Of a stretch of DNA of 64,000 nucleotides, positions 8,368 through 61,587 are shown one piece after another. How positions within the stretch are numbered: the stretch's first letter is position 1; every line of letters begins with the position of its first letter. Both the position numbers and the translations under genes were made by a program. The notes beneath the pieces are model-generated. The model saw nothing but the letters and a program-made list of their open reading frames with translations, was not told where the DNA came from and ran no database searches. This stretch comes from an uncultured Bacteroidota bacterium (lineage in GTDB: Bacteria; Bacteroidota; Bacteroidia; Bacteroidales; WCHB1-69), in assembly GCA_902774175.1 (NCBI GenBank), contig CACYHG010000033.1, positions 6,885 through 70,884 on the forward strand, written 5' to 3'.

Positions 8368-8550
8368 TCATACGTCCATTCCGCCACATTTTGTCCTGCC
8401 AGGCAAACGGCATGGAATTATCGTTGAATCCCGTTCCATCCGGAGCAGTTGCATTTTCCGGTCGATGCCGGCGGCATAGCCTGTCAGTGCGCCGTCCGCG
8501 GCCAAGGTGATGCCGCCGAGCGGCGATTCGTAACGGGTGATGTAATCCAT
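8368..8550 (-). pseudogene. Internally deleted methylated-DNA-protein-cysteine methyltransferase (Ogt/MGMT) remnant
   Basis: 60 aa. MDYITRYESPLGGITLAADG-ALTG resembles an MGMT N-terminal domain start. It is fused directly to YAAGIDRKMQLLRMER, which resembles the MGMT extreme C-terminus (..LTGYAGG..RK..LL..E). The PCHR active-site region is absent. Confidence 0.55.
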
Positions 8551-8560
8551 ATAATTGTGG

Positions 8561-9100
8561 TTATTGGGCGGCTGAAGAGGACTGCCCGTTAATTTGATGA
8601 TGACGCTGGAATGCCTTTAACCGCTCGTTCATCAAATCGCACAATGTTTGGGGCTTTATGGTCAGACCGCCGGCAGGAATGCTTTCCTGTGCACGTGCTA
8701 TTTTTTCATTTGCTTTCCGAATCAAACGTTCAAATTGTTTGGCATTGTCCATTTTTTTCTCCCTTACCCCCTTTTTATAGCGGATGCCTATCTGTTTGGT
8801 TTTTGAAATATCAATGATAAAAAACGCATTCACATCTTCAAAACGCACTTCAAAACTTTTTCCAGAACTTACAGAAACACCATTGTCTGTGATAACAATG
8901 CAAGGAGTGCCTGTTATTCTTTCTTTCAGGATTAAATATACCATGAAAAGTCCGCCACCGCCGAAAAACAATATTCCTAACCATTTTATCAGCTGTTTAT
9001 TTTCGAAATCCATCAAGAAAAAACCTGCCGTAAAGGCAAAACTTGATGCGATAAAGAGAAGATTTTTCCACAAAGAATGATACACCCTGACCTCTTCCAT
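8561..9100 (-). CDS. Hypothetical membrane protein (two N-terminal TM helices plus a soluble tail)
   Basis: 179 aa. Hydrophobic segments LLFIASSFAFTAGFFL and LGILFFGGGGLFMVYLIL. Region looks AT-richer by eye. I recognised no family. Confidence 0.5.
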   Translation of the reverse strand: MEEVRVYHSLWKNLLFIASSFAFTAGFFLMDFENKQLIKWLGILFFGGGGLFMVYLILKERITGTPCIVITDNGVSVSSGKSFEVRFEDVNAFFIIDISKTKQIGIRYKKGVREKKMDNAKQFERLIRKANEKIARAQESIPAGGLTIKPQTLCDLMNERLKAFQRHHQINGQSSSAAQ

Positions 9101-9104
9101 AATG

Positions 9105-9713
9105 CTATTTTTTCCCCGAAAGCTTTACGGCCATTAAAACTGAATCCTTGGCGGAGCCTATGTAACTTTTACCATTGAAGTGGAATACATCCGTATAGAT
9201 GGAATCTTTCATGCCATATCGGAGCACAATGGCATCTGCATCTTCATACACAAACAGTTGCGGATTATCGAATGGGAGGTAATACCAATCAAGATCACAT
9301 ACCGTGTAATCTATTATGCCTTCCCTTTGATACAAGGATAATCCAAAATACGAATTGTCCCAACCGTGGTAACAGCTGCGCATCAGATAGCGGTTGTCAT
9401 TGATGCATTTGTAACGCTTTTCAAAAAGCTGCCATTGTGACCTGCCTGCAACAATGGCGTAAAACAACCAGATAACGCTTATGATACCATACAGACACCA
9501 GGCAACTGTCTTGCTTTTCCGATTCCATCGTCTGGCAAGCAGCAGCAACCAAAGAGCGACAGCTATGGTACCGGTCACAACAGCTGTCAAGTACAAACAT
9601 TCGTCCAGATGACATGTAAGGAAACCATCCCAGCAGGACAATGAATAGAACAACAAAAACACCACCCATAAAAACACACTGACAATGGTCAGAATTACCG
9701 CTGTTTTCTTCAT
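9105..9713 (-). CDS. Hypothetical membrane protein (three predicted TM helices plus a C-terminal soluble domain)
   Basis: Start trimmed to ATG 9713 (MKKTAVILTIVSVFLWVVFLLF...). The track ORF extends to 9839 through non-coding-looking sequence. It lies 4 nt upstream of the 8561..9100 gene. Confidence 0.5.
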   Translation of the reverse strand: MKKTAVILTIVSVFLWVVFLLFYSLSCWDGFLTCHLDECLYLTAVVTGTIAVALWLLLLARRWNRKSKTVAWCLYGIISVIWLFYAIVAGRSQWQLFEKRYKCINDNRYLMRSCYHGWDNSYFGLSLYQREGIIDYTVCDLDWYYLPFDNPQLFVYEDADAIVLRYGMKDSIYTDVFHFNGKSYIGSAKDSVLMAVKLSGKK

Positions 9714-9858
9714 ACAGATATACTTTTTGTTTTTTCGTGTATATCCAACGCCGTCCTTCCGCGGTTTATTGCCCGAAAGACGAAAAAAAAAGATGCCTGA
9801 TAGAGACTTGTCAGAAGTTCTGGTTGCACAATACCGCATTTCATCACATTGGGCAAAC

Positions 9859-10698
9859 TCACAAATCCAACAAATATTTCATTCCGAAACCTATCATCCA
9901 GTAATCTCCCTTGTACAATAATTTGTCTGTAAAACAGGCCTCCTTGTCCTGTGGGTTATTTGTTTCCTTGTTCACATGAAATGTCCTGTAATAGAGACTC
10001 GTTTCACCCATGTTGCGTAAACCGGAGCAATAACTTGCCATGAAATACATCTGCCAATGGCGACAAAATGTGTATGAAATGCCTATATTGCTTTCTGCCA
10101 AAATATTGAATTTGGCATCACTGAATGAGGATTCCAGATGGTAGGCCAACCAGTACCGGTCATCACCGATGTAATATTCCTCAAAATAGGCTGTGGTATC
10201 CTCGTCCAAAAACAGCATTCCAGCATCACCCTGATATACAGGAATGTCAAGCACCAGACCCAAACCGGCAAAGAGATTCCAGGAATCTCCAAGATAAAAG
10301 TTATAGTTTGCCCGTAAAGGAATCTGCAAGGATTTATAATACAAAATACCGGAAACTTGTGAATAGCGGTTGCCGGCACCCTTCATGGAATGGGGGAACC
10401 ATGGATTGTATTCCTTGTAGGCAAAACCTGTCTGCAAACTTATCCGGTTGGGGAATTCTATGGTGAAATTGAGTTCCATGGGTATGCCGGATTCATTGGT
10501 GACAGAAGGGGAAATGGCTGTGTAATAGTCCATCTGACGGGAGGATGCCTGCATGATGTCAAAGGTGACACCTGTGCGGAAACCTATGGAACATATTGGT
10601 TTAACCGGTTTGGCAAACTCGTTTTGCGCGGACAGATTTATTCCAAAACCCAATAATAAGACACCTAAAACCACCCAAAAGCATTTTTTGTTCATCAT
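9859..10698 (-). CDS. Outer-membrane beta-barrel-like protein with signal peptide
   Basis: 279 aa. MMNKKCFWVVLGVLLLGFGINLSAQ, with a Y/F/G-rich alternating pattern. Confidence 0.55.
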   Translation of the reverse strand: MMNKKCFWVVLGVLLLGFGINLSAQNEFAKPVKPICSIGFRTGVTFDIMQASSRQMDYYTAISPSVTNESGIPMELNFTIEFPNRISLQTGFAYKEYNPWFPHSMKGAGNRYSQVSGILYYKSLQIPLRANYNFYLGDSWNLFAGLGLVLDIPVYQGDAGMLFLDEDTTAYFEEYYIGDDRYWLAYHLESSFSDAKFNILAESNIGISYTFCRHWQMYFMASYCSGLRNMGETSLYYRTFHVNKETNNPQDKEACFTDKLLYKGDYWMIGFGMKYLLDL

Positions 10699-10882
10699 TG
10701 AATCTACTTTAAAAAATTAATACACCTTTATAACGCTGGATTGTGGGGAAAAGTGTATGTCCCGAAAAAAATTTTCCGTATGCAACAATATTTGGAAACA
10801 ATATGCGTTTGTCAGAAGTTATGGTTGTGGCCTGCCGCAGCCAAAAGATAATTAAGTGTTTTATTAAGAAAACTTTAGAAAC

Positions 10883-12139
10883 ATGACAGACATTTTTACA
10901 AGAATTAAGGGCATCCCCGGACCACTCGGGCAGTATCAGGAATTTGCGGACGGATATTACATGTTCCCGCAGCTGGTGGGCGAAATCGGCCCGAATATGG
11001 AATTCAACGGCAAAAAAGTGCTTTGCTGGAGTCTGAACAACTACCTCGGACTGGCCAACGACCCCGAAGTGCGCAAAGCTGACGCGGAAGCCGCAGCAAA
11101 ATACGGCATGGCCGCCCCGATGGGCGCCCGCATGATGTCCGGCGACACAAAATACCACCACGAACTGGAGGACAAGCTGGCCGCCTTCGTCGGCAAACCG
11201 GCCGCATTCCTGGTGAACTACGGCTACCAGGCCATGATCTCCACCATTGACTGCCTGTTGGACCGCCGCGACGTGGTTGTCTTCGACATTGAATCCCACG
11301 CCTGCATCTACGACGGCATCCGCCTGCACATGGGACGCCGCTTCTCATACCGTCACAACGACATGTCGCACCTGCGCGAAGTGCTGGGACGCGCCACCAA
11401 ATTCGCCGAGGAGAGCGGCGGCGGCATCCTGGTCATCACCGAAGGTGTGTTCGGAATGTCGGGCGAACTTGGCAAACTGGACGAGATTGTTGCCATGAAG
11501 AAGGACTTCGACTTCCGCCTGCTCATCGACGATGCGCACGGCTTCGGCACCATGGGCAAGAACGGCACCGGCACCGCCGAACATTTCGGCGTTGAGGATG
11601 GCATCGACGTGCATTTCGCCGCCTTCGCCAAGAGCATGGCCGGTATCGGCGGCTTCGTCGCCTCCGAAAAGGCAATTGTGGATCACCTGCGCTTCAACAT
11701 GCGCTCCCAGACCTACGCAAAATCGCTCCCGATGCCGATGGTCATGGGTGCACTCAAGAGGCTGGAGCTGATACAGACCCGTCCGGAGCTGCGCGAAAAA
11801 CTCTGGACCATCACCAATGCGCTGAAGAAAGGGTTGCGTGAGAACGGCTTCAACATCGGCAACACCGAGGCCAATGTGACACCGGTCTTCCTGAACGGCA
11901 CCGTCGCACAGGCCACACAGATTGTGGTCGATATGCGTGAGAACTACGGCATATTCTGCTCCATGGTCCTCTATCCCGTGGTACCGAAAGGCACCATCGA
12001 GCTGCGCCTGATCCCGACCGCCGCACACACCCTGGAGGATGTGGAGCGCACCATCAACGTGTTCAAGGAGGTCCGCGCAAAGCTGGACCGCGGCGAATAC
12101 AGCGAAACCGAAATCAACAACCAGCGCATCAATTTCTAA
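10883..12139 (+). CDS. Alpha-oxoamine synthase family PLP enzyme; candidate cysteate-C-fatty acyltransferase (CapB/SulA type) or serine palmitoyltransferase
   Basis: 418 aa. NNYLGLANDPEV, DDAHGFG and a FAKSMAGIGGF lysine motif, as in the AONS/SPT/Kbl family. A cysteate-synthase-like gene starts 3 nt downstream. Confidence 0.8.
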   Translation: MTDIFTRIKGIPGPLGQYQEFADGYYMFPQLVGEIGPNMEFNGKKVLCWSLNNYLGLANDPEVRKADAEAAAKYGMAAPMGARMMSGDTKYHHELEDKLAAFVGKPAAFLVNYGYQAMISTIDCLLDRRDVVVFDIESHACIYDGIRLHMGRRFSYRHNDMSHLREVLGRATKFAEESGGGILVITEGVFGMSGELGKLDEIVAMKKDFDFRLLIDDAHGFGTMGKNGTGTAEHFGVEDGIDVHFAAFAKSMAGIGGFVASEKAIVDHLRFNMRSQTYAKSLPMPMVMGALKRLELIQTRPELREKLWTITNALKKGLRENGFNIGNTEANVTPVFLNGTVAQATQIVVDMRENYGIFCSMVLYPVVPKGTIELRLIPTAAHTLEDVERTINVFKEVRAKLDRGEYSETEINNQRINF

Positions 12140-17820: not shown

Positions 17821-19860
17821 ATGTCATTTGTACATCCTGCGTTTCTTTGGGGCCTTTTGGCGGTGGCGATACCTGTCATCATCCACCTCTTCCAGTTCCG
17901 GAGGTACCGCACACTCTATTTCTCCGACACGCGGTTCATTGAGGAGCTGCAGACGGAGCAGAAACGGCAGTCCCAACTAAAGAAACTGATTATCCTGTCC
18001 CTGCGAATTTTAGCCATAATTGCAATAGTCATGGCTTTCGCACAACCATACCGTCACCGTCCCAATGACAGATTCCGCGAAGGGACGGCCAGTGTGCTGC
18101 TTTATATTGACAATTCCTTCTCAATGGAGAACAGCTCCGACCAGGGTAGCCTCTTGAACGAAGCCAAGAACCAGGCGGCCGCCATTGTGGACGCATTTGA
18201 CGAATCGGCCTCCTTCATGCTTCTGACCAACGATCTGGAGGGAAGGCACGCCCACTTTTTCAACGCAACTGAAATCAAGGAGGAGATCGCACGCCTGCAA
18301 CCCAGCCCGAACAGCCGTACCATGGACCGTATGATGGAATATGGGCTCGGTTTCCTGGAACAGGAGAAGAGCGGCAACAGGCAGTTTTTCCTGATTTCAG
18401 ACTTCCAGCAGTCCACCGTACCGCTATCCCTCCTGCCTGACGACAGCAGTGTGCAGATAAGGATGGTTCCGCTGAAGCCGAACAGCCAGGACAACATTTA
18501 CATTGACAGCTGCTGGTTTGAATCGCCCCTCTTTTTACGCCAGCAGGAGTGCAAACTGCACCTGCAGGTGCGCAACAGCGGCCGGAATCCGGTTGAGCAG
18601 CTGCCTGTAAAACTGTACCTGAACGGACAGCAGAAAGCGATCGCAAACACGGACATCGCAGCCGAAGGCAAGGCACTTGTTGAAATGAGCTTCACACCTG
18701 ATGCGTCGGAATGGCAGCAGGGCTATGTGGAAATCACCGACCATCCCGTCACATTTGACGACCGCTATTATTTCTCGTTCCGCACCCGCGACCGGCATCC
18801 GGTGCTCTGCCTGTACGATGAAAATGAAAACCGATTCCTGCACGCGCTCTTTGCGGAGGATTCGGCCATCGGTTACCAGACCATGCGGCTGCAACAGATG
18901 GACTACAGCAGGCTCCCACAGCAGAATCTGGTCATACTTAACCCCACCAACGAAGTGGGGAGCGGCTGCCTGCAGGAGCTGCGGCGCTATGTGGAAAACG
19001 GAGGGTGCATGCTTGTCATTCCGAGTCCCAAGGCGGATGCAAACGCCAGCAACGCCATCAACAGCGCACTGGAACTGCCAGCCTTCACTCTTCTGGACAC
19101 CCACCGCACAAGGGTTTCGGAACTGCTGATGGAACACAGGATTTTCGCCCGCACAATGGAGAAGCCGACAGAACAGGTGCTGCTGCCGGCCGTTTTCCGG
19201 CACTACCGTCTGGCGCACAGCCTGCACCAGGGGAAAGAGGTGCTCATTTCCCTTGAAAACGGGGACGAGCTGCTAAGCGCCTACAGCATCGGACGTGGCT
19301 GCATATACCTGCTTTCAGTACCATTGGAGGATGCCTTCAGCGAATTCCAGCGGAATGCCATTTTTGTACCGGCAATATATAACATGGCGTTGTTCAAGAA
19401 CAACCCGCAGGCTCCCTGCTACCGCATGGGCGGGAACGACCCCATACCGATGGAGAGTGAGGCCGCACAAACGGACAAGCTGCCGGAACTGCGCAACGAC
19501 GCGCTGCAGTTCTCCTGCATTCCGGAAATCAGGAACAGCTATAACAACAGCGAAATCTTCATCCATGACCAGCTGCGCGAGGCGGGGAACTATCTGCTGT
19601 GCCAGCAGGAAGACACGCTTCAGACCCTCTCCTTCAACTACGACCGGCGCGAATCTGACCTTCATTACTGGAGCACAAAGGAGCTGAAAAAAGCCTGCAA
19701 CGGTTATCCGAACCGCGAAATCATGGCGATCAGCAACCTCTCCTCCGCCGCCGTGGCGGAGAAAATAAGCGGGAAAAACCGGCAGAACGGACTGTTCATC
19801 TGGCTGGCGCTTGCCTTCCTGCTTGCCGAAAGCATCCTTTTACGCCTATGGAAGGAATAG
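17821..19860 (+). CDS. BatA-N-terminal-domain (aerotolerance-type) membrane-anchored protein
   Basis: 679 aa. The N-terminus MSFVHPAFLWGLLAVAIPVIIHLF is characteristic of the BatA N-terminal double-TM domain. There is also a C-terminal TM helix. Confidence 0.65.
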   Translation: MSFVHPAFLWGLLAVAIPVIIHLFQFRRYRTLYFSDTRFIEELQTEQKRQSQLKKLIILSLRILAIIAIVMAFAQPYRHRPNDRFREGTASVLLYIDNSFSMENSSDQGSLLNEAKNQAAAIVDAFDESASFMLLTNDLEGRHAHFFNATEIKEEIARLQPSPNSRTMDRMMEYGLGFLEQEKSGNRQFFLISDFQQSTVPLSLLPDDSSVQIRMVPLKPNSQDNIYIDSCWFESPLFLRQQECKLHLQVRNSGRNPVEQLPVKLYLNGQQKAIANTDIAAEGKALVEMSFTPDASEWQQGYVEITDHPVTFDDRYYFSFRTRDRHPVLCLYDENENRFLHALFAEDSAIGYQTMRLQQMDYSRLPQQNLVILNPTNEVGSGCLQELRRYVENGGCMLVIPSPKADANASNAINSALELPAFTLLDTHRTRVSELLMEHRIFARTMEKPTEQVLLPAVFRHYRLAHSLHQGKEVLISLENGDELLSAYSIGRGCIYLLSVPLEDAFSEFQRNAIFVPAIYNMALFKNNPQAPCYRMGGNDPIPMESEAAQTDKLPELRNDALQFSCIPEIRNSYNNSEIFIHDQLREAGNYLLCQQEDTLQTLSFNYDRRESDLHYWSTKELKKACNGYPNREIMAISNLSSAAVAEKISGKNRQNGLFIWLALAFLLAESILLRLWKE

Positions 19861-20812
19861 AGGAGCGCATTTTCCGGGTAAGTTCCGCCAGTGAGTTCGA
19901 CGCGCTGGCCTTGGAGATTTTCCGCTTCCAGTACCGGAACTGTGCTGTTTACCGCCGCTATGCCGACGGCATCGGACGAACTCCGGAGCAGGTGCAATCG
20001 TTTTTTTCAAAACACACAAGATTACCAGCACCACACTGCCGGAGGAGATCATCTTCACCAGCAGCGGCACCACCGGAATGACTCCGTCGCACCATTACGT
20101 GCATTCGCTGGCACTTTACCGGCGAAGTTTCCGCGAAGCCTTCCGCGAGATGGTGGGCGACCCGAAGGATTTCGCCATCCTCGCGCTGCTCCCCTCCTAC
20201 ATGGAGCGGAAAGGCTCCTCCCTGCTCTACATGGTGCAGGAGCTGATGCAGGAGAGCGGGCACCCGATGAACCGATTTTACCTTCATAATCTGGAGGAGC
20301 TGGGCGACAATCTGGAAAAGCTGGCCGCCCAAGGGCAGCGGACAATCCTGTTCGGCGTGAGCTACGCGCTTCTGGATTTGGTGGAACAGCGCCGTTTCAG
20401 CCTTCCGGAACTCATTGTTTTCGAGACAGGAGGAATGAAGGGCCGGCGGAAGGAATACCTGCGGGAGGAGCTGCACCGTCTGCTGTGCGAAGGACTTGGT
20501 GTCAGCAGCATCCGCTCGGAATATGGCATGGCGGAGCTGATGTCGCAGGCCTATACCGATGGCGGCGAATGGTTCCGCTGCCCGCCATGGATGCGTGTCC
20601 TCATCCGTGATATGTATGACCCGCTCACCCTTACCGGCGCACCTGAAAGGAAGGGCGGCATCAACGTAATTGACCTGGCGAACATTTACAGCTGCTCATT
20701 CATCGCCACGCAGGACATCGGGGACCGCATGGAGGACGGCCGCTTCCGCGTGCTCGGCCGCTTCGACCAGGCCGACCTCCGCGGCTGCAACCTTCTGGTC
20801 ATGGAGGATTAG
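19848..20812 (+). pseudogene. LuxE/PaaK-family acyltransferase (acyl-protein synthetase-like) split by a frameshift in a T7 run
   Basis: ORF 19848..20081 (..FRFQYRNCAVYRRYADGIGRTPEQVQS) switches frame at TTTTTTT (20001-20007). It continues as FFKTHKITSTTLPEEIIFTSSGTTGMTPSHHYV into ORF 20078..20812. The combined length is ~321 codons. Confidence 0.65.
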
Positions 20813-20820
20813 CGTGATGG

Positions 20821-20875
20821 AAAAACTTTTTGTGGATATTCTTTCCGTATGCGGATTTTGAGTAATTTTGCAAAA
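20821..20875 (+). promoter_or_regulatory. Promoter cassette copy A (degenerate; about 12 nt shorter)
   Basis: AAAAACTTTTTGTGGATATTCTTTCCGTATGCGGATTTTGAGTAATTTTGCAAA, with TAATTTTG as the -7 box. It sits 37 nt upstream of ATG 20912. Confidence 0.55.
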
Positions 20876-20911
20876 TGAAACAACTATAAATTAACAGAAT
20901 AGATTAAAACT

Positions 20912-21613
20912 ATGAAAAGGTATTTTATGGTAATGACAATGGTCGGCTGCATCCTGACTGGCTACACGCAAACTGCGAAAGAAATGTATGAGGCACAAAA
21001 ATACATGAAACCTAATAATTATTCAGACTTTTCCATTGGAAAAGGGACAAGATTCGTTAGCGGAAGCGTTGGCCTTTCATTTGGATCCGTTTCCACATAT
21101 TGTTATTACGGAACCACTTCTGAATTTATTTCAAAGCCAAACCCGATTGAAATCTCACTTTCAGGTGGATTTGGAAGTTTTTTTTCAGACAAATGGACAA
21201 TAGGTGTGGAATTGGAATATGCACATAATACCACTCCTATATCCCAACTCGGAACAGGATGGTTAAAACAATATACCAATCTATTTGGAATAGCAATTGA
21301 TGTTACTGAACACTTAAAAATAACTGATAATTTTTTCTATACTGCAGGATTATCTTTTGGGGGATTAATTGGAGATTTGAAAGAAGATGTTGATTATACA
21401 AATTATATGTCATTTCAAGTAAATGGAATTGCATTGCAAGGATATTTGCTTGCATTTGAATTCAGACCAACCAATCGTTTAGCCATGAATGTAGGAGTTG
21501 GTTATTACGTGTTTGAGTTTATGAGATTAAAGAACACCGACATGAAAATGGAAGTTTGGGGTTCTGATTATAAACTTGGGAATGCCACTATCGGTGTTTC
21601 ATATTATTTTTGA
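20912..21613 (+). CDS. Outer-membrane beta-barrel-like protein in a visibly AT-rich segment
   Basis: 233 aa with a signal peptide, G/S/Y/F-rich alternating strands and a terminal ..GVSYYF. Confidence 0.55.
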   Translation: MKRYFMVMTMVGCILTGYTQTAKEMYEAQKYMKPNNYSDFSIGKGTRFVSGSVGLSFGSVSTYCYYGTTSEFISKPNPIEISLSGGFGSFFSDKWTIGVELEYAHNTTPISQLGTGWLKQYTNLFGIAIDVTEHLKITDNFFYTAGLSFGGLIGDLKEDVDYTNYMSFQVNGIALQGYLLAFEFRPTNRLAMNVGVGYYVFEFMRLKNTDMKMEVWGSDYKLGNATIGVSYYF

Positions 21614-21676
21614 GCGGTGGCAAATCGCCTGCCTGATATTGATTTGAGAGAAAACCTCAAATAAGTAGAATAGTTG

Positions 21677-21736
21677 GCAAAACTTTTTTTCCCTCCCACG
21701 TGGAATCCGTGTCGGGATTTTGAGTACTTTTGCAAA
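21677..21736 (+). promoter_or_regulatory. Promoter cassette copy B
   Basis: GGCAAAACTTTTTTTCCCTCCCACGTGGAATCCGTGTCGGGATTTTGAGTACTTTTGCAAA. The -7 box TACTTTTG is at 21725-21732, 32 nt before ATG 21764. Confidence 0.7.
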
Positions 21737-21763
21737 AAATGAAGTAACAAAAAAAACATAAAC

Positions 21764-22009
21764 ATGAATACACTAATTCCTTATCCTGAAGTTACAAGCA
21801 AAATTGTCACTATTCGAAAGCATGATGTGATTGCTGATGCGGATGTGGCGGAATTGTATGGCGTACAAACCAAAGAGGTGAACCAGGCGGTGCGGAACAA
21901 TCTGGACAAATTTCCAAGCGACTACATGTTTGAACTCACCAAGAGTGAATTACGAAGTTTGCGGTCAAAAATTTTGACCACAAAATGCAGCATTTTGGCG
22001 AAATGCTGA
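21764..22009 (+). pseudogene. ORF6N (KilA-N-like) domain gene, apparently truncated after the N-terminal domain
   Basis: 81 aa. VTIRKHDVIADADVAELYGVQTKEVNQAVRNNLDKFPSDYMFELTKSE..LRS matches the ORF6N domain as I remember it. The usual C-terminal half (~90-100 aa) is missing, and 220 bp of non-coding DNA follow. Confidence 0.55.
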
Positions 22010-22150
22010 CAGACATTGTGATGCCAGACCTCGAAACATCTGAGACAGAATCATCGCTGGAACTCAATTTTATAATAGGGATTATGATAACGAACAGGCA
22101 ACACTTCATATTGCTTTCAAGCCAAAAAAACTCCGAAGAGAAACATTAGA

Positions 22151-22207
22151 CAAAACTTTTTTCCCTCCCACGTGGAATCCGTGTCGGGATTTTGAGTACT
22201 TTTGCAA
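22151..22207 (+). promoter_or_regulatory. Promoter cassette copy C
   Basis: CAAAACTTTTTTCCCTCCCACGTGGAATCCGTGTCGGGATTTTGAGTACTTTTGCAAA. Nearly identical to copy B and 26 nt upstream of ATG 22233. Confidence 0.7.
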
Positions 22208-22232
22208 ACTGAAAATACAAATAATTCGTATT

Positions 22233-22805
22233 ATGAGTTCGCAAAATAATGCGCTGAAATTGATGCTGTCGGACAAGAGGACCGTATTCACCATACAGTC
22301 AATGGTGATGCTTTCAGGCATATCCGATGGAAACCGGCTGGCAAAAATGATGAATTATTATGTAAAAAAAGGGGAAATCATGAATCCACGACGGGGAATA
22401 TACACCAAACCGGCATACAATGCGGAAGAACTGGCATGTGCCATTTTCCATCCGTCATATATCTCCTTGGAGTATGTTTTGAAACAGGCGGGTGTGATAT
22501 TCCAATACGACTCAACAATCACCTCCATAAGCTATCTGTCCCGTTATGTGGAGGTTGATGGCCGAGCCTATTCATTCCGTCAAATCAAGCCCGAAATCTG
22601 GATGGACCTCTCAGGAATAAGACAAGTTGGAAACATTTGCATTGCCACACCGGAACGCGCTTTTTTGGACATGCTCTACCTTAGTGACGGAAACTGTCAC
22701 TTCGACAATCCGCATCCGATCAAATGCAAGGAAGTGAAGGCTCTGCTTCCCTCCTATCATTCCAAAACACTGGCGCAAACAGCCGCAAAATTGTTAAATC
22801 TCTGA
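22233..22805 (+). CDS. abiEi: AbiEi-family type IV toxin-antitoxin / abortive-infection antitoxin
   Basis: 190 aa. RGIYTKP....PSYISLEYVLKQAGVIFQ pattern, and it sits immediately upstream of the AbiEii gene with a 3-nt gap. Confidence 0.7.
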   Translation: MSSQNNALKLMLSDKRTVFTIQSMVMLSGISDGNRLAKMMNYYVKKGEIMNPRRGIYTKPAYNAEELACAIFHPSYISLEYVLKQAGVIFQYDSTITSISYLSRYVEVDGRAYSFRQIKPEIWMDLSGIRQVGNICIATPERAFLDMLYLSDGNCHFDNPHPIKCKEVKALLPSYHSKTLAQTAAKLLNL

Positions 22806-22808
22806 AAC

Positions 22809-23681
22809 ATGGACATTGCAAGACACAGATACTTCATGATGCAAGTGCTGCTTGCCATTTTCCGTGACAAGGAGCTTTCCGTCCAACTGGCTTTTAAGGG
22901 CGGCACGTCACTGTTGCTGTTCCACCAGCTTCCACGTTTTTCCACCGATTTGGACTTTAATCTGTTAGATGAAACCCAAGCGGCGGAAGTTTTCCGGAAG
23001 GTACGTCACATCCTGTTGAAATACGGTAAAATAGACGATGAAGCGCTGAAATTTTACGGCCCGATTCTGGTGCTTAACTATGGGGGCGGAAACCGCATGT
23101 TAAAAATTGAAATATCAACGCGCCAATACGACAATCACTATGAAATCAAGACATTGGCGGGAACCGATGTGCGTGTGATGACCCTCCCGGACATGTTTGC
23201 CCACAAACTGTGCGCACTGGGGGAACGGGTAACTCCACGCGATATTTTTGATGTATGGTTTTTCCTTCACAAGAACACCGGAATCAACCCGCATATCATC
23301 CAGTTACGCACTGGGCTGGATGTCACAGATTATGTGACACTATGCGCAGAACGGGTCAGGAACACAAGCCCAAAAACGCTTGTACAGGGGCTTGGCGAAC
23401 TGTTGGACGGGAATGTGACCAAATCGTTTGTGAAAAACAGCATGATAGAAGAAACAGCCTCCCTTCTTGAACTATTCTCCCTGTCACCGATAATTGCAGG
23501 CCAACCTGTTACAGAAAGAATGCAACTGATTGATACACATCCTGAAATATTGGAAAAACTTGAAAAAAACGATATAGACATCAGTATCGTGAGTGAAAAG
23601 CAGCTGCTTCAAATCATCAGGGAACACGCGACAGTGGAAATCCCGAACCGGAAAGGTAACAAGGTAACGTTTTCCCTGTAA
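22809..23681 (+). CDS. abiEii: AbiEii/AbiGii-family nucleotidyltransferase toxin (DUF1814)
   Basis: 290 aa. FKGGTSLLLF..PRFSTDLDF nucleotidyltransferase motif and DIFDVWF, both typical of AbiEii. Confidence 0.8.
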   Translation: MDIARHRYFMMQVLLAIFRDKELSVQLAFKGGTSLLLFHQLPRFSTDLDFNLLDETQAAEVFRKVRHILLKYGKIDDEALKFYGPILVLNYGGGNRMLKIEISTRQYDNHYEIKTLAGTDVRVMTLPDMFAHKLCALGERVTPRDIFDVWFFLHKNTGINPHIIQLRTGLDVTDYVTLCAERVRNTSPKTLVQGLGELLDGNVTKSFVKNSMIEETASLLELFSLSPIIAGQPVTERMQLIDTHPEILEKLEKNDIDISIVSEKQLLQIIREHATVEIPNRKGNKVTFSL

Positions 23682-23684
23682 AAC

Positions 23685-24146
23685 ATGCAACTGACCATCC
23701 GACATATCCGCCACTGGTACGAACCGAAGCTGCCCCATGCGGTTTTCCTTGACGGGCTTTTTGCCGGCATGATGCAAGGCGACCGGCTGCAAATAGAGGT
23801 GCCTCCGGGCATCTACAACCTGCGTGTGCAGTGCGGCGGCAGGCTTCCCATTGGCAAAAGCGGCAGGAGCATCGACCTGTCCCTTTCATCCACAGTGCCG
23901 GTGACTGTCCAGTACGGGTCAGGGACGGTTTGCGAGTTCCACGACCGCGAGCGGCTCTGGAACCTGCTGTTTGACGCCGATCTGGTGGCATGGCTGGTGT
24001 CGCTGTTCGTGACAATGCCGCCGCTCTACAAGATACTTTCCAATGCTTTTTTTGTTATCTGGCTGGTGCGGCTTTTCCTGATAAGGAAACGGTATTACAA
24101 AATTACAGTCCGTGCTTCAAATTCCACATCAGCATCCAGCCGGTAA
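23685..24146 (+). CDS. Hypothetical protein with an N-terminal beta-rich domain and two C-terminal TM helices; tightly coupled to abiEii
   Basis: 153 aa. ATG lies 3 nt after the abiEii stop. Hydrophobic segments LVAWLVSLFVTMPPL and AFFVIWLVRLFLI. Confidence 0.5.
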   Translation: MQLTIRHIRHWYEPKLPHAVFLDGLFAGMMQGDRLQIEVPPGIYNLRVQCGGRLPIGKSGRSIDLSLSSTVPVTVQYGSGTVCEFHDRERLWNLLFDADLVAWLVSLFVTMPPLYKILSNAFFVIWLVRLFLIRKRYYKITVRASNSTSASSR

Positions 24147-24173
24147 AAGACGATTCCGTTATTGTTGCCTGTT

Positions 24174-24235
24174 GGCAAAAACTTTTTCCCCCTCTATGCG
24201 GAATCCGTGTCGGGATTTTGAGTATTTTTGCAAAA
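24174..24235 (+). promoter_or_regulatory. Promoter cassette copy D
   Basis: GGCAAAAACTTTTTCCCCCTCTATGCGGAATCCGTGTCGGGATTTTGAGTATTTTTGCAAA, 55 nt upstream of ATG 24290. Confidence 0.7.
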
Positions 24236-24289
24236 AATATTTTTTGTGAAAAAATTGAAAATTTGACAAATATTTAAACAAAAGACATC

Positions 24290-24787
24290 ATGGAAAATAC
24301 CGGTGATATCATTATTTACCAGACCGATGACGGCCTGACAAAAATTGATGTGAAATTGGATCATGACACCGTATGGCTTAACCAGCAGCAGATGGTTCTT
24401 CTTTTTCACTCCAGTAAATCAAACATCAGTGAACACATAAAGCATATTTTTGCTGAAGGAGAATTGGAGGAGGATTCAGTTGTTCGGAAATTCCGAACAA
24501 CTGCCGATGACGGTAAAAAATATGAAGTGACATTCTACAACCTTGACATGATCATTTCGCTCGGATACCGTATCAAATCAATCATCGCGACACGTTTCCG
24601 CATTTGGGCAACGCAACGGTTGAAGGAATATATGATTAAGGGATTCACCATGGATGATGAACGGCTGAAAGGTAATGGCGGCGGCAAATACCGTAAATAC
24701 CAGAACAACACACTTTCACCAGTTGAAAAGGCTTATTTGGAGACCATCAGGGAAACGGCCAAACTTGTTAAAAAAAACATGCCATAA
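24290..24787 (+). pseudogene. RhuM-family gene, about half normal length (apparent internal deletion)
   Basis: 165 aa. The N-terminal ~130 aa (IIIYQTDDGLTKIDVKLDHDTVWLNQQQMVLLF..SKSNISEHIKHIFAEGEL...GYRIKS..ATRFRIWATQRLKEYMIKGFTMDDERLK) match RhuM as I remember it. Only ~30 further residues follow. Confidence 0.55.
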
Positions 24788-24830
24788 GTAGTTCTTCCGC
24801 CTCCATCGCATATTAGATAAGGCGAATCAT

Positions 24831-26051
24831 TTACCACGCCGCCATCCACTTCCGCTCGTTCTCGGTCAGCACCACCGATTTGCGGTCATAGTCCGGATCG
24901 GGCAGATACCATTGGGTGGACTCATAAAACTGCTGCATCTTTTTGTTCCGGAAACGGCGGCCACGGTAGGCGTATGGCAGTTCCCGCATAATGCGGTGTT
25001 GAAGACGGGAATACTGCGCCAACGGAACCCCTATATATTCAAAAAAGGATGAGTCAATATAGGGACTCAAATCGCAACGCGCCCATCTGATTGCATCCAT
25101 CATATCAGCTGCTGTGGGTTTATCTCCCGCCCAACTCATTTCCCACAACAGCTGGATAAACATCGGTTTGACAACCAACAATTCACCTTCAGGATGAAAA
25201 TTATTCCGGTGAAAGGTGACACCACCTTTCAGCACATGAAAAAAGGTCACGGGCATTTCATAAAGCGAATCCTCGCTTGTTCTTCCGCAACCATCAAACT
25301 GCCAGTCCCGCGCATTTTTGAAAAAGGAGTTTATGACCATAAAGGACTCAAAATTCCCCATCCTGAGGTGCAGCGTAAAATCGTCAATGCCATTGTTCGC
25401 CCAGCGGTTGGCTGCGGTCAATGTGTAAGGGAACCAATACTCGTCCCCCTGATGTGCGGAAAGCGAATAATGGTAGGTGTGCTGTATGATGTTCAGCCCT
25501 TTGCGGAAAAGCACCTTGAAATGATAGACATAATCAAAATTAGTTTTAGGATAGACACGCGGCATTTCAATACTGTCAAAAAATTCACCGCAGACAACGG
25601 AATCCAAACCGGCTATTTTCCCGTCCTGCATATAGGCCGGAATAAAACCGGACACACTGTCTCCCAGATAACGTGGAAACAGGCTCCTTTCAACCTGTGC
25701 GATTCCATAAGACAAGGGTATTCCGTTCACCGTCACACTGAAATTCCGGATAAAGGGATGCGCTGGAAACGAACGCCGCCTTTCAGCATAGGAATGCTCC
25801 GGTGCACCCGCCTCAAAACCGACCAGCAGCTCCTTCTCCTCCGCCGGGTTGAAAAACTCATAATAGACGTTCACCTCCAAATGGTCACCCACACGTGTGA
25901 TTGTCAGCACCTCCTTCTGCACCCGGATGTCAGTCTCCATTATCGGGACCAACTGGTTCCCAGAGGCTCGGAACACTCCGTCATTGGCGGAGGCCCGCCC
26001 CACAAAACCGCCTGCCACAACAAGCAAAAACAAAAAACGAAACGCTTTCAT
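24831..26051 (-). CDS. Secreted protein with a DUF4424-like N-terminal region and a C-terminal YARHG domain
   Basis: Start trimmed to ATG 26051 (MKAFRFLFLLVVAGGFVGRASA, signal peptide). The C-terminus LPYAYRGRRFRNKKMQQFYESTQWYLPDPDY fits the YARHG motif. Confidence 0.65.
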   Translation of the reverse strand: MKAFRFLFLLVVAGGFVGRASANDGVFRASGNQLVPIMETDIRVQKEVLTITRVGDHLEVNVYYEFFNPAEEKELLVGFEAGAPEHSYAERRRSFPAHPFIRNFSVTVNGIPLSYGIAQVERSLFPRYLGDSVSGFIPAYMQDGKIAGLDSVVCGEFFDSIEMPRVYPKTNFDYVYHFKVLFRKGLNIIQHTYHYSLSAHQGDEYWFPYTLTAANRWANNGIDDFTLHLRMGNFESFMVINSFFKNARDWQFDGCGRTSEDSLYEMPVTFFHVLKGGVTFHRNNFHPEGELLVVKPMFIQLLWEMSWAGDKPTAADMMDAIRWARCDLSPYIDSSFFEYIGVPLAQYSRLQHRIMRELPYAYRGRRFRNKKMQQFYESTQWYLPDPDYDRKSVVLTENERKWMAAW

Positions 26052-26106
26052 CTGTTTATTTTTCTGTTTTAAACGGGAGAAACGCAGCATTATTGCCCCG
26101 CAAAAA
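26043..26106. repeat. 64-bp direct repeat, copy 1 (5' region and first codons of the YARHG gene)
   Basis: CGCTTTCATCTGTTTATTTTTCTGTTTTAAACGGGAGAAACGCAGCATTATTGCCCCGCAAAAA. Identical to 28349-28411 apart from one C indel. Confidence 0.85.
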
Positions 26107-26156
26107 CTTTTTTCCATCCCATGCGGAATCCGTGTCGGGATTTTGAGTATTTTTGC
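26100..26156 (+). promoter_or_regulatory. Promoter cassette copy E
   Basis: GCAAAAACTTTTTTCCATCCCATGCGGAATCCGTGTCGGGATTTTGAGTATTTTTGCGG, 47 nt upstream of ATG 26203. Its left end abuts direct-repeat copy 1. Confidence 0.7.
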
Positions 26157-26202
26157 GGATTGAATAAAAAACATAACATTAACCTTTAAATCACATTATT
26201 AC

Positions 26203-27072
26203 ATGGAGGAGATTGTCGCAATTCAATTATTTGAAGGCAAGAAAGTTCGCGTTGTATGGGATGCGGAAAAGGAAAAGTATTTCTTTTCGGTGGTGGATAT
26301 CGTACAGGTGTTGACCGAAAGCCCTCGCCCAAGAAAATACTGGAGCGCGTTGAAAGCGAAGCTGAAGGAGGAGGGAGATGAAACGTCCCAAAAATTGGGA
26401 CAGTTGAAATTGTTATCTCCAGATGGGAAAAAACGTCTTACCGATGTGGCTGATTTGGAAGAGGTTTTCCGCATCATCCAATCTATTCCCTCTCCGAAGG
26501 CGGAGCCATTGAAGCGTTGGCTGGCCCAAGTAGGCAGCCATCGTGTGGACCAGATTATAGACCCGGAACAGACCTTCCAAATGGCTGTTGAAGACTATCG
26601 CAGACAGGGCTACAGTGACCGGTGGATTAACGAACGTATGAAATCCATCAAAATGCGCAAGGAACTGACGGACGAATGGGAACGGTCCGGAGTCCATGAC
26701 AAGAAAGACTTTGCCATTTTAACGAATGTGCTCACCAAGGCATGGAGCGGCATGACCACTGGAGAATACAAACAATACAAGGGACTTACCAAAGAGAATT
26801 TACGCGACAACATGACAAGTGTGGAACTGGCATTGAACACACTTGCCGAGGTGGCTACTGCTGAAATCTCACGCCAACGGAATCCGAAAGGACTTGAAGA
26901 AAGCCATAAAACGGCACAAGCGGGTGGCCGTATAGCCAGAAATGCACGTCGTGACTTGGAAACCGAAATCGGGCACAGTGTGCTTTCACCCTCCAAAGCC
27001 TCGGATTATTTGACACCAATGGAGGATGTTGAACCCAAAGAATTACCACAGGACATTTCAAATAAAGACTGA
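26203..27072 (+). CDS. Bro-N domain protein, DinD (DNA-damage-inducible protein D)-like
   Basis: 289 aa. The N-terminus FEGKKVRVVWDAEKEKYFFSVVDIVQVL is Bro-N-like, and the downstream region (RWINERMKSIKMRKELTDEW...) is DinD-like. Confidence 0.7.
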   Translation: MEEIVAIQLFEGKKVRVVWDAEKEKYFFSVVDIVQVLTESPRPRKYWSALKAKLKEEGDETSQKLGQLKLLSPDGKKRLTDVADLEEVFRIIQSIPSPKAEPLKRWLAQVGSHRVDQIIDPEQTFQMAVEDYRRQGYSDRWINERMKSIKMRKELTDEWERSGVHDKKDFAILTNVLTKAWSGMTTGEYKQYKGLTKENLRDNMTSVELALNTLAEVATAEISRQRNPKGLEESHKTAQAGGRIARNARRDLETEIGHSVLSPSKASDYLTPMEDVEPKELPQDISNKD

Positions 27073-27269
27073 ATGAAGTTTACAAAGTTTTATGCGTCCA
27101 AATTGTAATGTTCCAATGCTTTTGATACACTACGGGCACCTTCTTTCTGATCTGTTCGGAAAAACCGAACAGTTGACATCCTTTCCGGTTTCTTTATTTC
27201 CACCACGTGCAATAAAGCCATGCCGGATGCGTTATATAAAATGTATACATACTCTAAAATATTAAAGGC

Positions 27270-28139
27270 ATGAGAAAAACCGATATTTTTGGCATTATTT
27301 TGCTCGCTGTCGTGCTGATGACCGCGTGCGGAAATGATTTGAAGGTGGATTGTGGTACGTTAAACCCCAATGATATAGAAATAATTTTATCAGCAGGTAT
27401 TCCAATGAGACTAAACGATTCACCTACCATTATCTACAAAGATGGTATCTGTTATGATATTCCAAATGAATATGGAGAAAATGATTGGGCCATTAATTAT
27501 AAAGGACAAAAACAATGCGCGTTCCGGCATTTTAAGACAAATTGTAGACATTCTCACAAATACAATTTTTCTTTTTTTGGGAATCATGACACCATATACT
27601 GTATCATTGACATTCGTGGTAAAGATGCAGAAAAAGACACATTGATATTTAAGGAGTTAGAAAACAACAAATACAACCAACTTGATTCAAACGGTCTTAA
27701 ACAAGGAATTTGGCTTTCTGAAACACCCTCTGATCGAGTGGAAACCAATTATTATAACGGAAAACGTCATGGTATTTATATAGCATATTCTCGGAAAAGC
27801 AATAAAATATCTTCAATAGGTGAGTTTAGAAACAATGCCATGTCAGGAACTTGGTATACGTTTGACGATTATGGAATATTGCTGTCTAAAGTTGAGAATA
27901 TTGTTGAAAATAATGATTATTATTATTTTGCAGATGGGACATACTATTATGGGGGAAAACCCAAACACAAGGCTCATTACGTTAATTATTATCCCAATGG
28001 AAATATTAAGTCGGAAGGAACAATACTTTTCAGCGATACCTTTGAAACAGAAAGTAGTGAATATGGCTTTTGGAAATATTATGACGAGAAAGGCAATCTA
28101 ATAAAAACGGAGGAGATAGAAGGTGTGAAAAAAAAATAA
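27270..28139 (+). CDS. Lipoprotein with MORN-variant (YwqK-like) repeats in a strongly AT-rich segment
   Basis: 289 aa. Lipobox LLAVVLMTAC. Repeated G.K.G.W..Y..G motifs (NGKRHGIYIAY, NAMSGTWYTFDDYG, GFWKYYDEKGN). Confidence 0.6.
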   Translation: MRKTDIFGIILLAVVLMTACGNDLKVDCGTLNPNDIEIILSAGIPMRLNDSPTIIYKDGICYDIPNEYGENDWAINYKGQKQCAFRHFKTNCRHSHKYNFSFFGNHDTIYCIIDIRGKDAEKDTLIFKELENNKYNQLDSNGLKQGIWLSETPSDRVETNYYNGKRHGIYIAYSRKSNKISSIGEFRNNAMSGTWYTFDDYGILLSKVENIVENNDYYYFADGTYYYGGKPKHKAHYVNYYPNGNIKSEGTILFSDTFETESSEYGFWKYYDEKGNLIKTEEIEGVKKK

Positions 28140-28176
28140 TTTGACATGAAAGAAATGAACAAAGCACAAATGTAAC

Positions 28177-28347
28177 ATGGAGAAAATTCAGATATTCAAA
28201 GACAAAAAAAATCCGAACCCATTGGGATGCGGAACTTGGGGAATAGAACAGCGCACTGGACAACCAGTAATTAGTCCGATTAACGCTAACGACAAACACG
28301 CTCTTGACACCAATCTGGACGATGTGAAACAAATAGAAAGCAAATAA
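28177..28347 (+). pseudogene. Bro-N/DinD mini-gene remnant (N-terminal and C-terminal fragments only, with a frameshift)
   Basis: 56-codon ORF MEKIQIFKDKK.... A neighbouring frame reads KKIRTHWDAELGE, matching the paralog at 26203 (KKVRVVWDAEKEK). The tail GQPVISPINANDKHAL resembles the paralog's GHSVLSPSKASDYL. Just upstream (28146-28175), ATGAAAGAAATGAACAAAGC resembles the 5' end of the PD-(D/E)XK gene at 53200. Confidence 0.45.
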
Positions 28348-28348
28348 C

Positions 28349-28411
28349 CGCTTTCATCTGTTTATTTTTCTGTTTTAAACGGGAGAAACGCAGCATTATT
28401 GCCCGCAAAAA
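28349..28411. repeat. 64-bp direct repeat, copy 2 (orphan 5' region plus an MKA start codon stub)
   Basis: Same sequence as 26043-26106. On the minus strand it gives ATG AAA GCG and then diverges (track ORF 28286..28504 is an artefact of this stub). Confidence 0.85.
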
Positions 28412-28415
28412 ATAT

Positions 28416-29831
28416 TTATTCCCGCACAAATTTGGCAGAGAGGAGCGCATCGTCAACGGTGCGCAGTTGGAGCAGATACATGCCGGAGGGCAAGGCGGAG
28501 ACATCCAGTCCGGTTGAGGGAAGGTTCTCCGTTTGCAGCATAACCTGCCCCAACAGATTACGGACTGTAACCTGCGAAATGCCCTTTGCGGAATCCGGCA
28601 GTTGGATATGCAGAATCCCCGAAACCGGATTGGGCCAGACCTTCAAAGCCTCACCGGAGCGCGTAAAAGCGGCATCCGCCTGAGTGCTGCCGGGATATAT
28701 GTTCACGATAGCCCGCTCCAGATTGTTCCAGTCATCCGATCCGGAGTTGATGGAATCCAAAGTCACCCAGGAACCGGCTCCACCCCACCCCCAATTGAAA
28801 TGGAACATGCCGGTTTCGGAATCATAGCCGTCACAGACAAAGGCATGCGCCTCCAACTCCATCATCTCGTCCACCGCCGCATAAAAAACAGGCTTCCCGT
28901 CCATAATGTCGGACATAATGCTGTTTTTCCATTCCGCTTCATTCAATGCCCTTCTTATCAGTTTCGCACTTGAACGGTAACCGAATCCGGACACGAATGC
29001 ATTCCGCGCATCCGACGGCCATGCGAACGACTGGCATTCGCTTATACAATAGATAACATTGGCGGCGCTGCCACAATCGGCCAGGAGCCGTGCGACGGCG
29101 TGCCGTTCCGCCTCATAATTGGAGTTCGTGTCAATTTTGTTCCCATTCATGCGACAGAGCCTCAACTCGTCCGGCATGTTGTTCCAATCATACAGCTCCA
29201 TTTTCTTGGGTCTGCGGAGCGGCTGTTTCCAGTAATTCATGATCTGCGCCATGGCCACAGGGACACAACCGGCGGCACAACGGTTCTCCCGGTCACATCT
29301 GCTTGAAACGTAATAATTGTAGGCGTTCGGCTGCCCGTCATTGGAACTGGTCTGTTTCCAGCGGGTGGTGATATAGGGGCCATATTTTTCCCCACCCCGC
29401 ATTTGAACAATTGTATCCTCCAAAAGCATTTTCCATCGCCAGTCGGGATCACCGGAGCCGCTGTCCAATATCTGCCCGATTGCGGAGGCAAATTTCCCAA
29501 CAAAATGGGACATGCCGCTCCCGTCTGAATTCTGAAGGAAAGTGACGCTGTCGCCGCTGCTGTTGTAAGCCAGCACCGGCATCACGCTTTTCACGCCTGA
29601 AACCAGTGCGGAACAGCCGTTCCTGAAACAGACCTCATAAAGCAGGGTCTTTCCCTCCCTCTCCAAACGGCTTACATGCGACACATCCGCCGCCTGGAAA
29701 GATTTCTCCCTGAAAAAGCGCTGCATGTATTTTGACGAGGCATTTACGGCTTCCGCTTCAGTGACAATATTTTGGGCATTGCCCACAAGAAAGCAGGACA
29801 GCAATGACAGGACAACAACGAGATGTTTCAT
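28416..29831 (-). CDS. C10 (SpeB-like) cysteine peptidase with a T9SS C-terminal sorting domain
   Basis: Start trimmed to ATG 29831 (MKHLVVVLSLLSCFLVGNAQN). Cys context AAGCVPVAMAQIMNYW, His context AHAFVCDGY, and FHFNWGWGG. The CTD is VWPNPVSGILHIQL...LPSGMYLLQLRTVDDALLSAKFVRE. Confidence 0.85.
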   Translation of the reverse strand: MKHLVVVLSLLSCFLVGNAQNIVTEAEAVNASSKYMQRFFREKSFQAADVSHVSRLEREGKTLLYEVCFRNGCSALVSGVKSVMPVLAYNSSGDSVTFLQNSDGSGMSHFVGKFASAIGQILDSGSGDPDWRWKMLLEDTIVQMRGGEKYGPYITTRWKQTSSNDGQPNAYNYYVSSRCDRENRCAAGCVPVAMAQIMNYWKQPLRRPKKMELYDWNNMPDELRLCRMNGNKIDTNSNYEAERHAVARLLADCGSAANVIYCISECQSFAWPSDARNAFVSGFGYRSSAKLIRRALNEAEWKNSIMSDIMDGKPVFYAAVDEMMELEAHAFVCDGYDSETGMFHFNWGWGGAGSWVTLDSINSGSDDWNNLERAIVNIYPGSTQADAAFTRSGEALKVWPNPVSGILHIQLPDSAKGISQVTVRNLLGQVMLQTENLPSTGLDVSALPSGMYLLQLRTVDDALLSAKFVRE

Positions 29832-53157: not shown

Positions 53158-53199
53158 ACAAAACGGGAATAATACCATTAACCTTTAAAAATTAACAAA

Positions 53200-61530: not shown

Positions 61531-61587
61531 CCAACTTTATCAATACGAAATGTTTTTTCCATGTAAAAAAAGTGAAGACATGAACGC

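Follow-up and report, generated by a model that had tools for sequence, protein, structure and literature searches.

We analysed a 64-kb window (the whole stretch of 64,000 nucleotides (nt) from contig CACYHG010000033.1 of an uncultured Bacteroidales bacterium), in which an element of ~57-65 nt recurs in front of accessory genes. Five copies (A to E) lie in an island with a guanine-cytosine (GC) content of 35-50% compared with ~55% in the flanks, and a sixth copy (F) is located elsewhere in the window (Table 1). The left flank of the island encodes LpxC, an ABC ATPase, BatA and the LuxE-like protein, and on the right the Peptidase_C10 gene is accompanied by genes for a sigma-54 activator, an M16 peptidase, PglZ, RF-1 and SprA. 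Copy A starts 9 nt past the stop codon of the LuxE-like gene.

According to PADLOC, the island genes belong to AbiE and to the defence-candidate families PDC-S05, PDC-S13 and PDC-S02. The AbiEi antitoxin gene and the AbiEii nucleotidyltransferase gene behind copy C are adjacent, which identifies the pair as an AbiE type IV toxin-antitoxin system. The first-pass annotation of this DNA had assigned ORF6N and RhuM genes to copies B and D; the families were right, but both genes are truncated. The 'beta-barrel' protein that it placed behind copy A gave no significant family hit.

Table 1. Copies of the element, cassettes and associated features in the window. Copy spans are profile (nhmmer) spans; aa, amino acids.
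Feature	Position	Strand	Remarks
Low-GC variable island	20813-28415		Hotspot between LuxE-like and Peptidase_C10 genes
Copy A	20821-20877	+	Profile search and core match; 5' half degenerate; heads the island
233-aa putative outer-membrane beta-barrel or lipoprotein	20912-21613	+	Behind copy A; no significant family
Copy B	21674-21739	+	Profile search; precedes truncated ORF6N gene
ORF6N N-terminal fragment, 81 aa	21764-22009	+	Behind copy B; PDC-S05; Pfam profile positions 1-62 of 86
Copy C	22147-22211	+	Profile search; precedes abiEi-abiEii and third gene
AbiE cassette with third gene	22233-24146	+	Behind copy C
AbiEi	22233-22805	+	PADLOC 1.4e-75
AbiEii	22809-23681	+	PADLOC 9.3e-93; Pfam AbiEii 1.2e-22
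153-aa protein	23685-24146	+	Third gene behind copy C; no assigned function
Copy D	24172-24236	+	Profile search; precedes truncated RhuM gene; partner in D×E deletions (other strains)
RhuM N-terminal fragment, 165 aa	24290-24787	+	Behind copy D; PDC-S05; Pfam profile positions 1-76 of 252
YARHG/DUF4424 protein	24831-26051	-	Convergent with RhuM fragment; in D-E interval missing from some strains
Copy E	26098-26162	+	Precedes Bro-N/DinD-like gene; divergent from YARHG gene; partner in D×E and E×E' recombinants
Bro-N/DinD-like protein	26203-27072	+	Behind copy E; PDC-S13
289-aa lipoprotein	27270-28139	+	Weak parallel-beta-helix similarity; stop codon inside leader of next cassette
Second Bro-N remnant	28133-28345	+	Leader and internally deleted gene; own copy E' lost in window, present elsewhere
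Duplicated YARHG-E junction	28346-28420	+	5' end of YARHG and start of E; 92% to 26040-26111; truncated module start at its end
Copy F	53045-53098	+	Diverged subfamily; moves with Rpn/PDDEXK_2 paralogues
Rpn-family PD-(D/E)XK nuclease ('putative transposase')	53200-54186	+	Behind copy F

Sequence and spacing of the copies

Profile spans and core matches place six same-strand copies where the first-pass annotation had put them. The 27-nt core CCGTRTNNGGATTTTGAKTANTTTTGC is matched six times in the window, always on the plus strand, against 0.00 matches expected from 100 shuffles. Copies B-E have an identical 25-mer (GGAATCCGTGTCGGGATTTTGAGTA) and are 87-98% identical over 57-68 nt (B-C 98% over 59 nt, D-E 91% over 57 nt, B-D 87% over 68 nt and C-E 89% over 62 nt), and their flanks and downstream genes are unrelated. 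Homology from copy to copy stops ~10-20 nt past TTTTGC. The spacing between TTTTGC and the ATG is 40 nt for A, 30 for B, 27 for C, 58 for D, 46 for E and 105 for F, so that the 26-55 nt noted previously is borne out as 27-58 nt for A-E. Also recovered were the inverted repeat AATCC-N6-GGATT, found in copies B-E, and a block in the 5' untranslated regions (leaders) common to copies E and F, CATTAACCTTTAAA.

The downstream genes had been called unrelated to each other, which holds for A-E, whose genes are not paralogues, but not for the F-type copies, which were duplicated along with their Rpn/PDDEXK_2 gene. Likewise, one segmental duplication including the coding regions does not account for A-E and does apply to the F type. 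The five consecutive island cassettes of the earlier description are present as five island copies, but other strains possess a seventh copy, E', of which the window retains only the leader, at 28133.

The upstream module and the -7 box

In the element, the A/T tract AAAACTTTTTT (about -58 to -46) and a variable block rich in C precede a near-invariant core of 25 nt (GGAATCCGTGTCGGGATTTTGAG, about -36 to -13) and a -7 box, and the unit as a whole reaches from about -60 to -1. The A/T tract is positioned where an UP element would lie and may play an UP-like role. Conservation 'far beyond what a promoter needs', as it had been put, is overstated, since -60 to -1 is the size of a full promoter with an UP-like tract.

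The 3' end is formed in all six window copies by a -7 box, TA[ACT]TTTTG, as claimed earlier; the -7 consensus of sigma-ABfr, the primary sigma factor of Bacteroidetes, is TAnnTTTG (PMC7366714). In the window TAnnTTTGC was observed 19 times compared with 7.1 expected occurrences. Nine other TAnnTTTGC sites, of which seven are intergenic promoter candidates of core genes, have only the box in common with the element. Because the core-gene promoters share nothing but the box, the element does not represent the upstream sequence generally found in this genome, a possibility that had been raised against its significance. Sigma-54 sites (GG-N10-GC) and motifs of the extracytoplasmic function type (GGAAC-N16-CGT) were both a poor fit on reading the sequence.

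Homologues in other taxa separate what belongs to the cassettes from what belongs to the repeat. AbiEi homologues with 70% and 56% identity keep TATTTTTGCAAACTGAAAATACAAAT...ATG, that is, the -7 box and leader of copy C, and upstream of the box their sequence is unrelated and the module absent. From 22197 on, the -7 box and leader of copy C are thus native to the AbiE cassette, and they either arrived with it or sit at a fixed distance from it. Bro-N homologues (85% and 79% identity) occur in other species as single-gene insertions between core genes; the module is absent there and they have another promoter or none. Because the homologues elsewhere are without the module, what is portable and species-specific comprises the ~50 nt preceding the -7 box. 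What had been described as a 'promoter-bearing' element is better seen as an upstream module joined to that box. The proposals that the core is an ancestral AbiE operator or native Bro-N sequence were rejected, as the AbiEi and Bro-N homologues elsewhere lack it.

Recombination between copies in natural strains

Contigs with the same flanking or cassette proteins were used for strain comparison (retrieved contigs are cited by L numbers). At least four island variants exist within one species. A full-length DUF1016/YhcG gene (384 aa) stands behind copy A in most strains; it is reduced to a 118-aa fragment in UBA1195, a rumen genome of the same species, and in L056. The window has copy A joined straight to a leader block of 26 nt, whose place in other strains is downstream of DUF1016.

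Six metagenome contigs of differing sample origin (L018, L022, L025, L043, L044 and L049) have a D/E hybrid element, in three haplotypes. In these hybrids the 5' flank comes from D and the leader from E, and the truncated RhuM gene and the YARHG gene in between (window 24232-26099) are gone. The extra copy E' precedes a second Bro-N gene in L043, L049, L053 and L054; UBA1195 has a single E/E' hybrid and the intervening Bro-N cassette is missing. Recombination of copy with copy thus demonstrably removes cassettes. The lost-E' junction of the window displays an 8-nt microhomology, AAAATAAT, and a truncated module start, GCAAAAAATATTTATTCC, terminates the duplicate found at the right-hand edge of the island.

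Alleles of the variable block (CCCTCCCACGYGG, CCACTCCCACGYGG, CCCCCTCTATGCGG, CCATCCCATGCGG and others) reassort among positions C, D, E and E' between strains. Copies D and E have one and the same block in L053 but different blocks in the window, and the identity in L053 indicates gene conversion. Copies at the same position in 95-99% identical strains differ even inside the core, e.g. GGGTTTTTGATTACC. The D/E hybrids, the E/E' hybrid and the reassorted blocks support the suggestion that cassettes are deleted and shuffled by way of homology between the repeats.

In a sister species, in which LuxE is 83% identical, a different island of 9 kb occupies the same site and has no element copy. In a more distant relative (LuxE 76%) the site is empty and the LuxE gene adjoins the sigma-54 activator gene. 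The nhmmer profile gave no copies over the sister-species island and the empty site. Variable islands within the species, the different sister island and the empty site in the relative together mark the site as a hotspot. The sister-species island (L057-L062, 11.0-20.1 kb) is unrelated in content and carries ATPase_2/DUF234, DUF4160 and a PIN_3 toxin pair.

Some strains have a full-length ORF6N gene on the opposite strand whose 3' end overlaps the ORF6N fragment behind copy B (L043:14303-15263, compared with window 21764-22080), which suggests an inversion or inverted duplication. The window keeps only the fragment, not the full-length gene.

Distribution of the element

The strict core was searched as an exact match in 185,579 species genomes, one genome per species, and was found in three metagenome-assembled genomes only. 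Twelve matches lie on 11 contigs of the rumen genome 'Bacteroidales bacterium UBA1195', which has 95-98% nucleotide identity to the window across the locus; profile search of retrieved DNA raised the total in UBA1195 to at least 16 copies. A loosened pattern matched nothing in viral contigs; in metagenomes of the Joint Genome Institute it gave 11 sites, nearly all of them ordinary -7-box promoters and none with the module. BLAST against phage and plasmid records detected no match to the element, and an Rfam 15 scan of 20-29 kb gave nothing relevant, its single hit being the chance-level Hammerhead_II match described below, which lies outside the element. The element is young and restricted to one rumen Bacteroidales species (UBA1195-like).

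The dispersed UBA1195 copies precede, in the same orientation, a full-length ORF6N gene, three KilA-N genes and an hsdM-like gene with hsdS, and further copies stand before an AAA-ATPase/PDDEXK_9 gene, a PDDEXK_4 gene and several Rpn paralogues. Overall, the families behind the copies are ORF6N, KilA-N, hsdM with hsdS, AAA-ATPase with PDDEXK_9, PDDEXK_4, Rpn, DUF1016, AbiE, RhuM and Bro-N, and the enrichment of defence-associated genes proposed for the window holds across window and dispersed copies. All copies are co-oriented with an open reading frame (ORF) 23-116 nt downstream, except at the hsdM-like gene, where the distance is 332 nt. Three more loci match the 3' half only; they precede genes for DUF4919, YjbR and a membrane protein.

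UBA1195 contains a second array (L003:934-5545, minus strand) with the order YidC, ABC-F, element, KilA-N, element, hsdM-like (HSDR_N and N6_Mtase) and hsdS. A KilA-N cassette with its own element copy thus lies directly upstream of the hsdM-like gene, and the 332-nt leader of the latter contains hairpins. The leader after copy F in the window (53098-53160) has two perfect hairpins, AAATCCATTC-N10-GAATGGATTT and GTAGAGACG-N10-CGTCTCTAC, which are kept upstream of several UBA1195 Rpn paralogues and may be an RNA element of the 5' untranslated region. Two 2.5-kb contigs (L005 and L011; CAMZEQ01) assigned by binning to 'uncultured Alphaproteobacteria' contain the element together with KilA-N genes near-identical to those of UBA1195, and are almost certainly misbinned Bacteroidales DNA.

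A putative mobile-promoter family as best explanation

The explanation that we favour, with a probability of about 0.6, is a species-specific family of 'putative mobile promoters', in which a ~50-55-nt upstream module is joined to the generic sigma-ABfr -7 box of unrelated genes. The module would supply the upstream promoter segment to unrelated cassettes having such a box, and the genes downstream are mostly single-gene defence candidates or genes for toxin-antitoxin systems, restriction-modification and nucleases. Transcription would start a few bases past TTTGC, and each cassette would for that reason have its own transcript. The five to seven direct-repeat copies in one hotspot island act as portable homology; recombination between them removes intervening cassettes, and the copies are homogenised and reshuffled by gene conversion. 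We infer promoter activity of the module as well as a RecA-type mechanism of recombination. The promoter reuse is a clear example of its kind and not a new genetic system.

Several observations weigh against this explanation. The canonical -33 TTTG is absent 19-21 nt upstream of the -7 box, where copies B-E read GGAA, TGGA or GTGG, and the promoter may therefore need an activator or another sigma factor; the -33 motif is weak or absent in other Bacteroidetes too (PMC7366714). Subfamilies are only 65-80% alike yet keep the layout, which hints at functional constraint beyond recent copying. Homologous recombination covers the loss of cassettes but not the placement of the module at ~20 unlinked -7 boxes. 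Finally, two window junctions, one after copy A and one at the lost E', coincide with the 3' edge of the module with no partner copy present, and simple repeat × repeat exchange does not predict them.

The missing -33 box and the layout kept by diverged subfamilies would also suit a dedicated regulon, in which the core with its AATCC-N6-GGATT repeat would be the operator of one trans-acting repressor or activator, or an alternative-sigma site, and this factor would control the defence and mobilome genes of the species together. We regard this reading, also put forward earlier, as a tentative possibility that gained no support from the computations; it is compatible with the mobile-promoter explanation. 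The position of the core is typical of binding sites for repressors and class II activators, and the downstream gene set is functionally coherent. AbiEi-type antitoxins autoregulate via inverted repeats in their own promoters, and abiEi stands behind copy C in every strain seen. However, no candidate regulator is conserved with the element: a small helix-turn-helix gene occurs in some island variants and is absent from the window strain. Moreover, several subfamilies depart from the left half-site (ATTCC, CTTTCC, TGACC), the core is not an ancestral AbiE operator, given the AbiEi homologues without it, and it differs between closely related strains as described above.

A further-reaching proposal, which we consider unlikely, is that a dedicated system of this Bacteroidales lineage uses the module as its cis-site. 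The module would then be either an operator that acts as one switch for a 'defensome' comprising AbiE, type I restriction-modification, KilA-N, ORF6N, Bro-N, RhuM, DUF1016 and PD-(D/E)XK genes, or a docking site at which promoterless defence cassettes are taken up immediately behind a ready-made promoter, an integrase-independent functional analogue of an integron.

Structure, recombinases and mobile elements

Predicted RNA folds of the island copies contain an 8-bp hairpin of -8 to -10 kcal/mol, which is not significant (z -0.65 to -1.7), and single-stranded DNA folds of the copies are no better than those of shuffles (z -0.05 to -2.0). When covariation of AATCC and GGATT was analysed over 23 distinct copies, one compensatory change was found, and 96 of 500 shuffles scored as high. 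Because the folds were non-significant and covariation remained at shuffle level, an attC-like or RNA-structure reading was dropped.

In read-through RNA the same hairpin (GGAAUCC...GGGAUUUU), with a U-rich tail overlapping the -7 box, could make each copy a terminator-promoter insulator that ends the transcript of the upstream cassette and starts the next one. A terminator scan flags copies D and E only, the folds predicted for B, D and F reach -8.4 to -9.9 kcal/mol, and copies lie between co-directional genes. An insulator is nevertheless quite improbable: in addition to the fold and covariation statistics, the stems of other subfamilies measure only 3-4 bp, and copy E lies between divergently transcribed genes, where it receives no transcript from upstream.

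Scans with Pfam, covering the island genes and the larger ORFs of the window but not the repeat-rich first 4.3 kb and short ORFs, revealed no integrase, transposase or recombinase; apart from the Rpn-like gene and housekeeping RuvA, nothing related to nucleases or recombination was hit. Gene calls of contigs identical to window 12837-33681, and of the SprA gene beyond, included no integrase or transposase. On reading the sequence, no attC-type ends (RYYYAAC/GTTRRRY) were seen. The earlier comparison with an integron-like layout thus fails on integrase, attC structure and promoterless cassettes, and integron-like capture is unlikely because these scans and gene calls contain no integrase, attC features are missing and the cassettes are individually promoted.

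Site-specific capture could still operate if the module or the -7 junction were the site at which a dedicated enzyme, encoded elsewhere in the genome, inserts and excises promoterless leader-plus-gene cassettes, and the array layout with a degenerate first copy right after a core gene would agree with that. So would the two partnerless junctions exactly at the 3' edge of the module, the cassette-native homology in other species, which begins at or just past the -7 box, and the homologous cassettes found there as single-gene insertions. Yet we judge it very unlikely, as tyrosine and serine recombinases and transposases are absent from the scanned ORFs and identical-contig gene calls, the fold is neither stable nor conserved and each cassette has its own -7 box. 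In addition, the D×E crossovers vary relative to the variable block, and the microhomology at the lost-E' junction is typical of illegitimate deletion.

The island copies begin with GCAAAAA and end with TTTTTGC, a terminal inverted repeat of 5-7 nt that could point to a remnant transposable-element end, either a miniature inverted-repeat transposable element or a solo insertion-sequence end with an outward promoter. This terminal repeat is, however, absent from the F, L001, L003 and L013 subfamilies, no target-site duplications were found, and the copies always face the gene. With no longer parent element, upstream flanks that are all unrelated and no match in the phage and plasmid collections, we give such an origin hardly any credence.

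Relation to known systems

The mobile-promoter explanation finds its closest parallel in the putative mobile promoters of Matus-Garcia, Nijveen and van Passel (2012; PMC3575422). These are upstream sequences at least 80% identical over at least 50 nt before non-homologous genes in one genome, as copies B-E are; neither they nor the present family can be linked with any known mobile element or mechanism of copying. The present family differs in that the shared part ends at a generic -7 box brought by at least one cassette, that it is linked to one functional class, defence and mobilome genes, and that it forms a tandem array in a hotspot, where population data directly show that copies recombine.

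Integron cassette arrays, among them the sedentary chromosomal integrons in which defence genes are stored (bioRxiv 10.1101/2024.07.02.601686), resemble the island in their co-oriented, short and unrelated defence cassettes, the ~60-nt repeat between them and a content that varies by strain. Here, in contrast, integrase and attI/attC structure are missing, the repeat lies 5' of the gene as part of the promoter and not as a 3' recombination site, the cassettes are individually promoted and their exchange looks homologous. Correia elements and ERIC, promoter-bearing dispersed repeats cited in PMC3575422, are also short intergenic repeats with promoter function that can mediate rearrangements, but they are bounded by terminal inverted repeats and target duplications and are found in either orientation, whereas the present element shows none of these traits and always faces a gene. 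With fixed flanks, variable low-GC content, an empty site in a relative and a different sister island, the locus is like other defence-island hotspots, except for the repeated promoter module inside it, which has not been described for these. Phage morons (promoter-gene-terminator units) are autonomous single-gene units of accessory function as well; however, they carry their own, unrelated promoters, and here the upstream part is shared and supplied by the host species.

How new defence genes gain expression and how islands turn over is in general poorly understood. Promoter reuse across ~20 unrelated defence-type genes of one species provides a concrete and testable case of a route by which acquired genes could be domesticated, and natural strain variation illustrates how repeats drive cassette loss and evolve in concert. 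The family may in addition be an instance of co-regulated defence genes in Bacteroidota, a phylum with poorly explored promoter biology. In annotation the motif marks accessory and defence genes of this lineage, and the repeated module explains assembly breaks in the island.

Further observations in the window

In the LuxE-like gene the window has a 28-nt deletion (~19820-20078) relative to the otherwise identical European Nucleotide Archive contigs L016 and L017. The resulting frameshift leaves a 244-aa ORF instead of 330 aa and may reflect a strain variant or an assembly error. A Hammerhead_II match on the minus strand within the coding region of this gene (20686-20768; 22.2 bits compared with a gathering score of 37, E = 0.74) is most likely due to chance.

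A second low-GC segment (8000-11330, 41-42% GC) contains four minus-strand genes, none of which has a family above the Pfam cut-off; one gave a weak match to an outer-membrane beta-barrel. At the syntenic boundary UBA1195 has an element copy and a full-length ORF6N gene instead (L001:937-990), and the segment is therefore probably another variable spot.

Positions 1-4260, coding on the minus strand, consist of diverged coding repeats of 153/171 nt (at least 14 units, 60-70% identity), which probably encode a giant repeat-domain surface protein running off the window start. At 61567-61737, just upstream of a minus-strand gene ending at 61495, the 9-nt unit AACCTCTTA and its variants form ~19 tandem repeats, which might represent a phase-variable tract or encode a repeat peptide.

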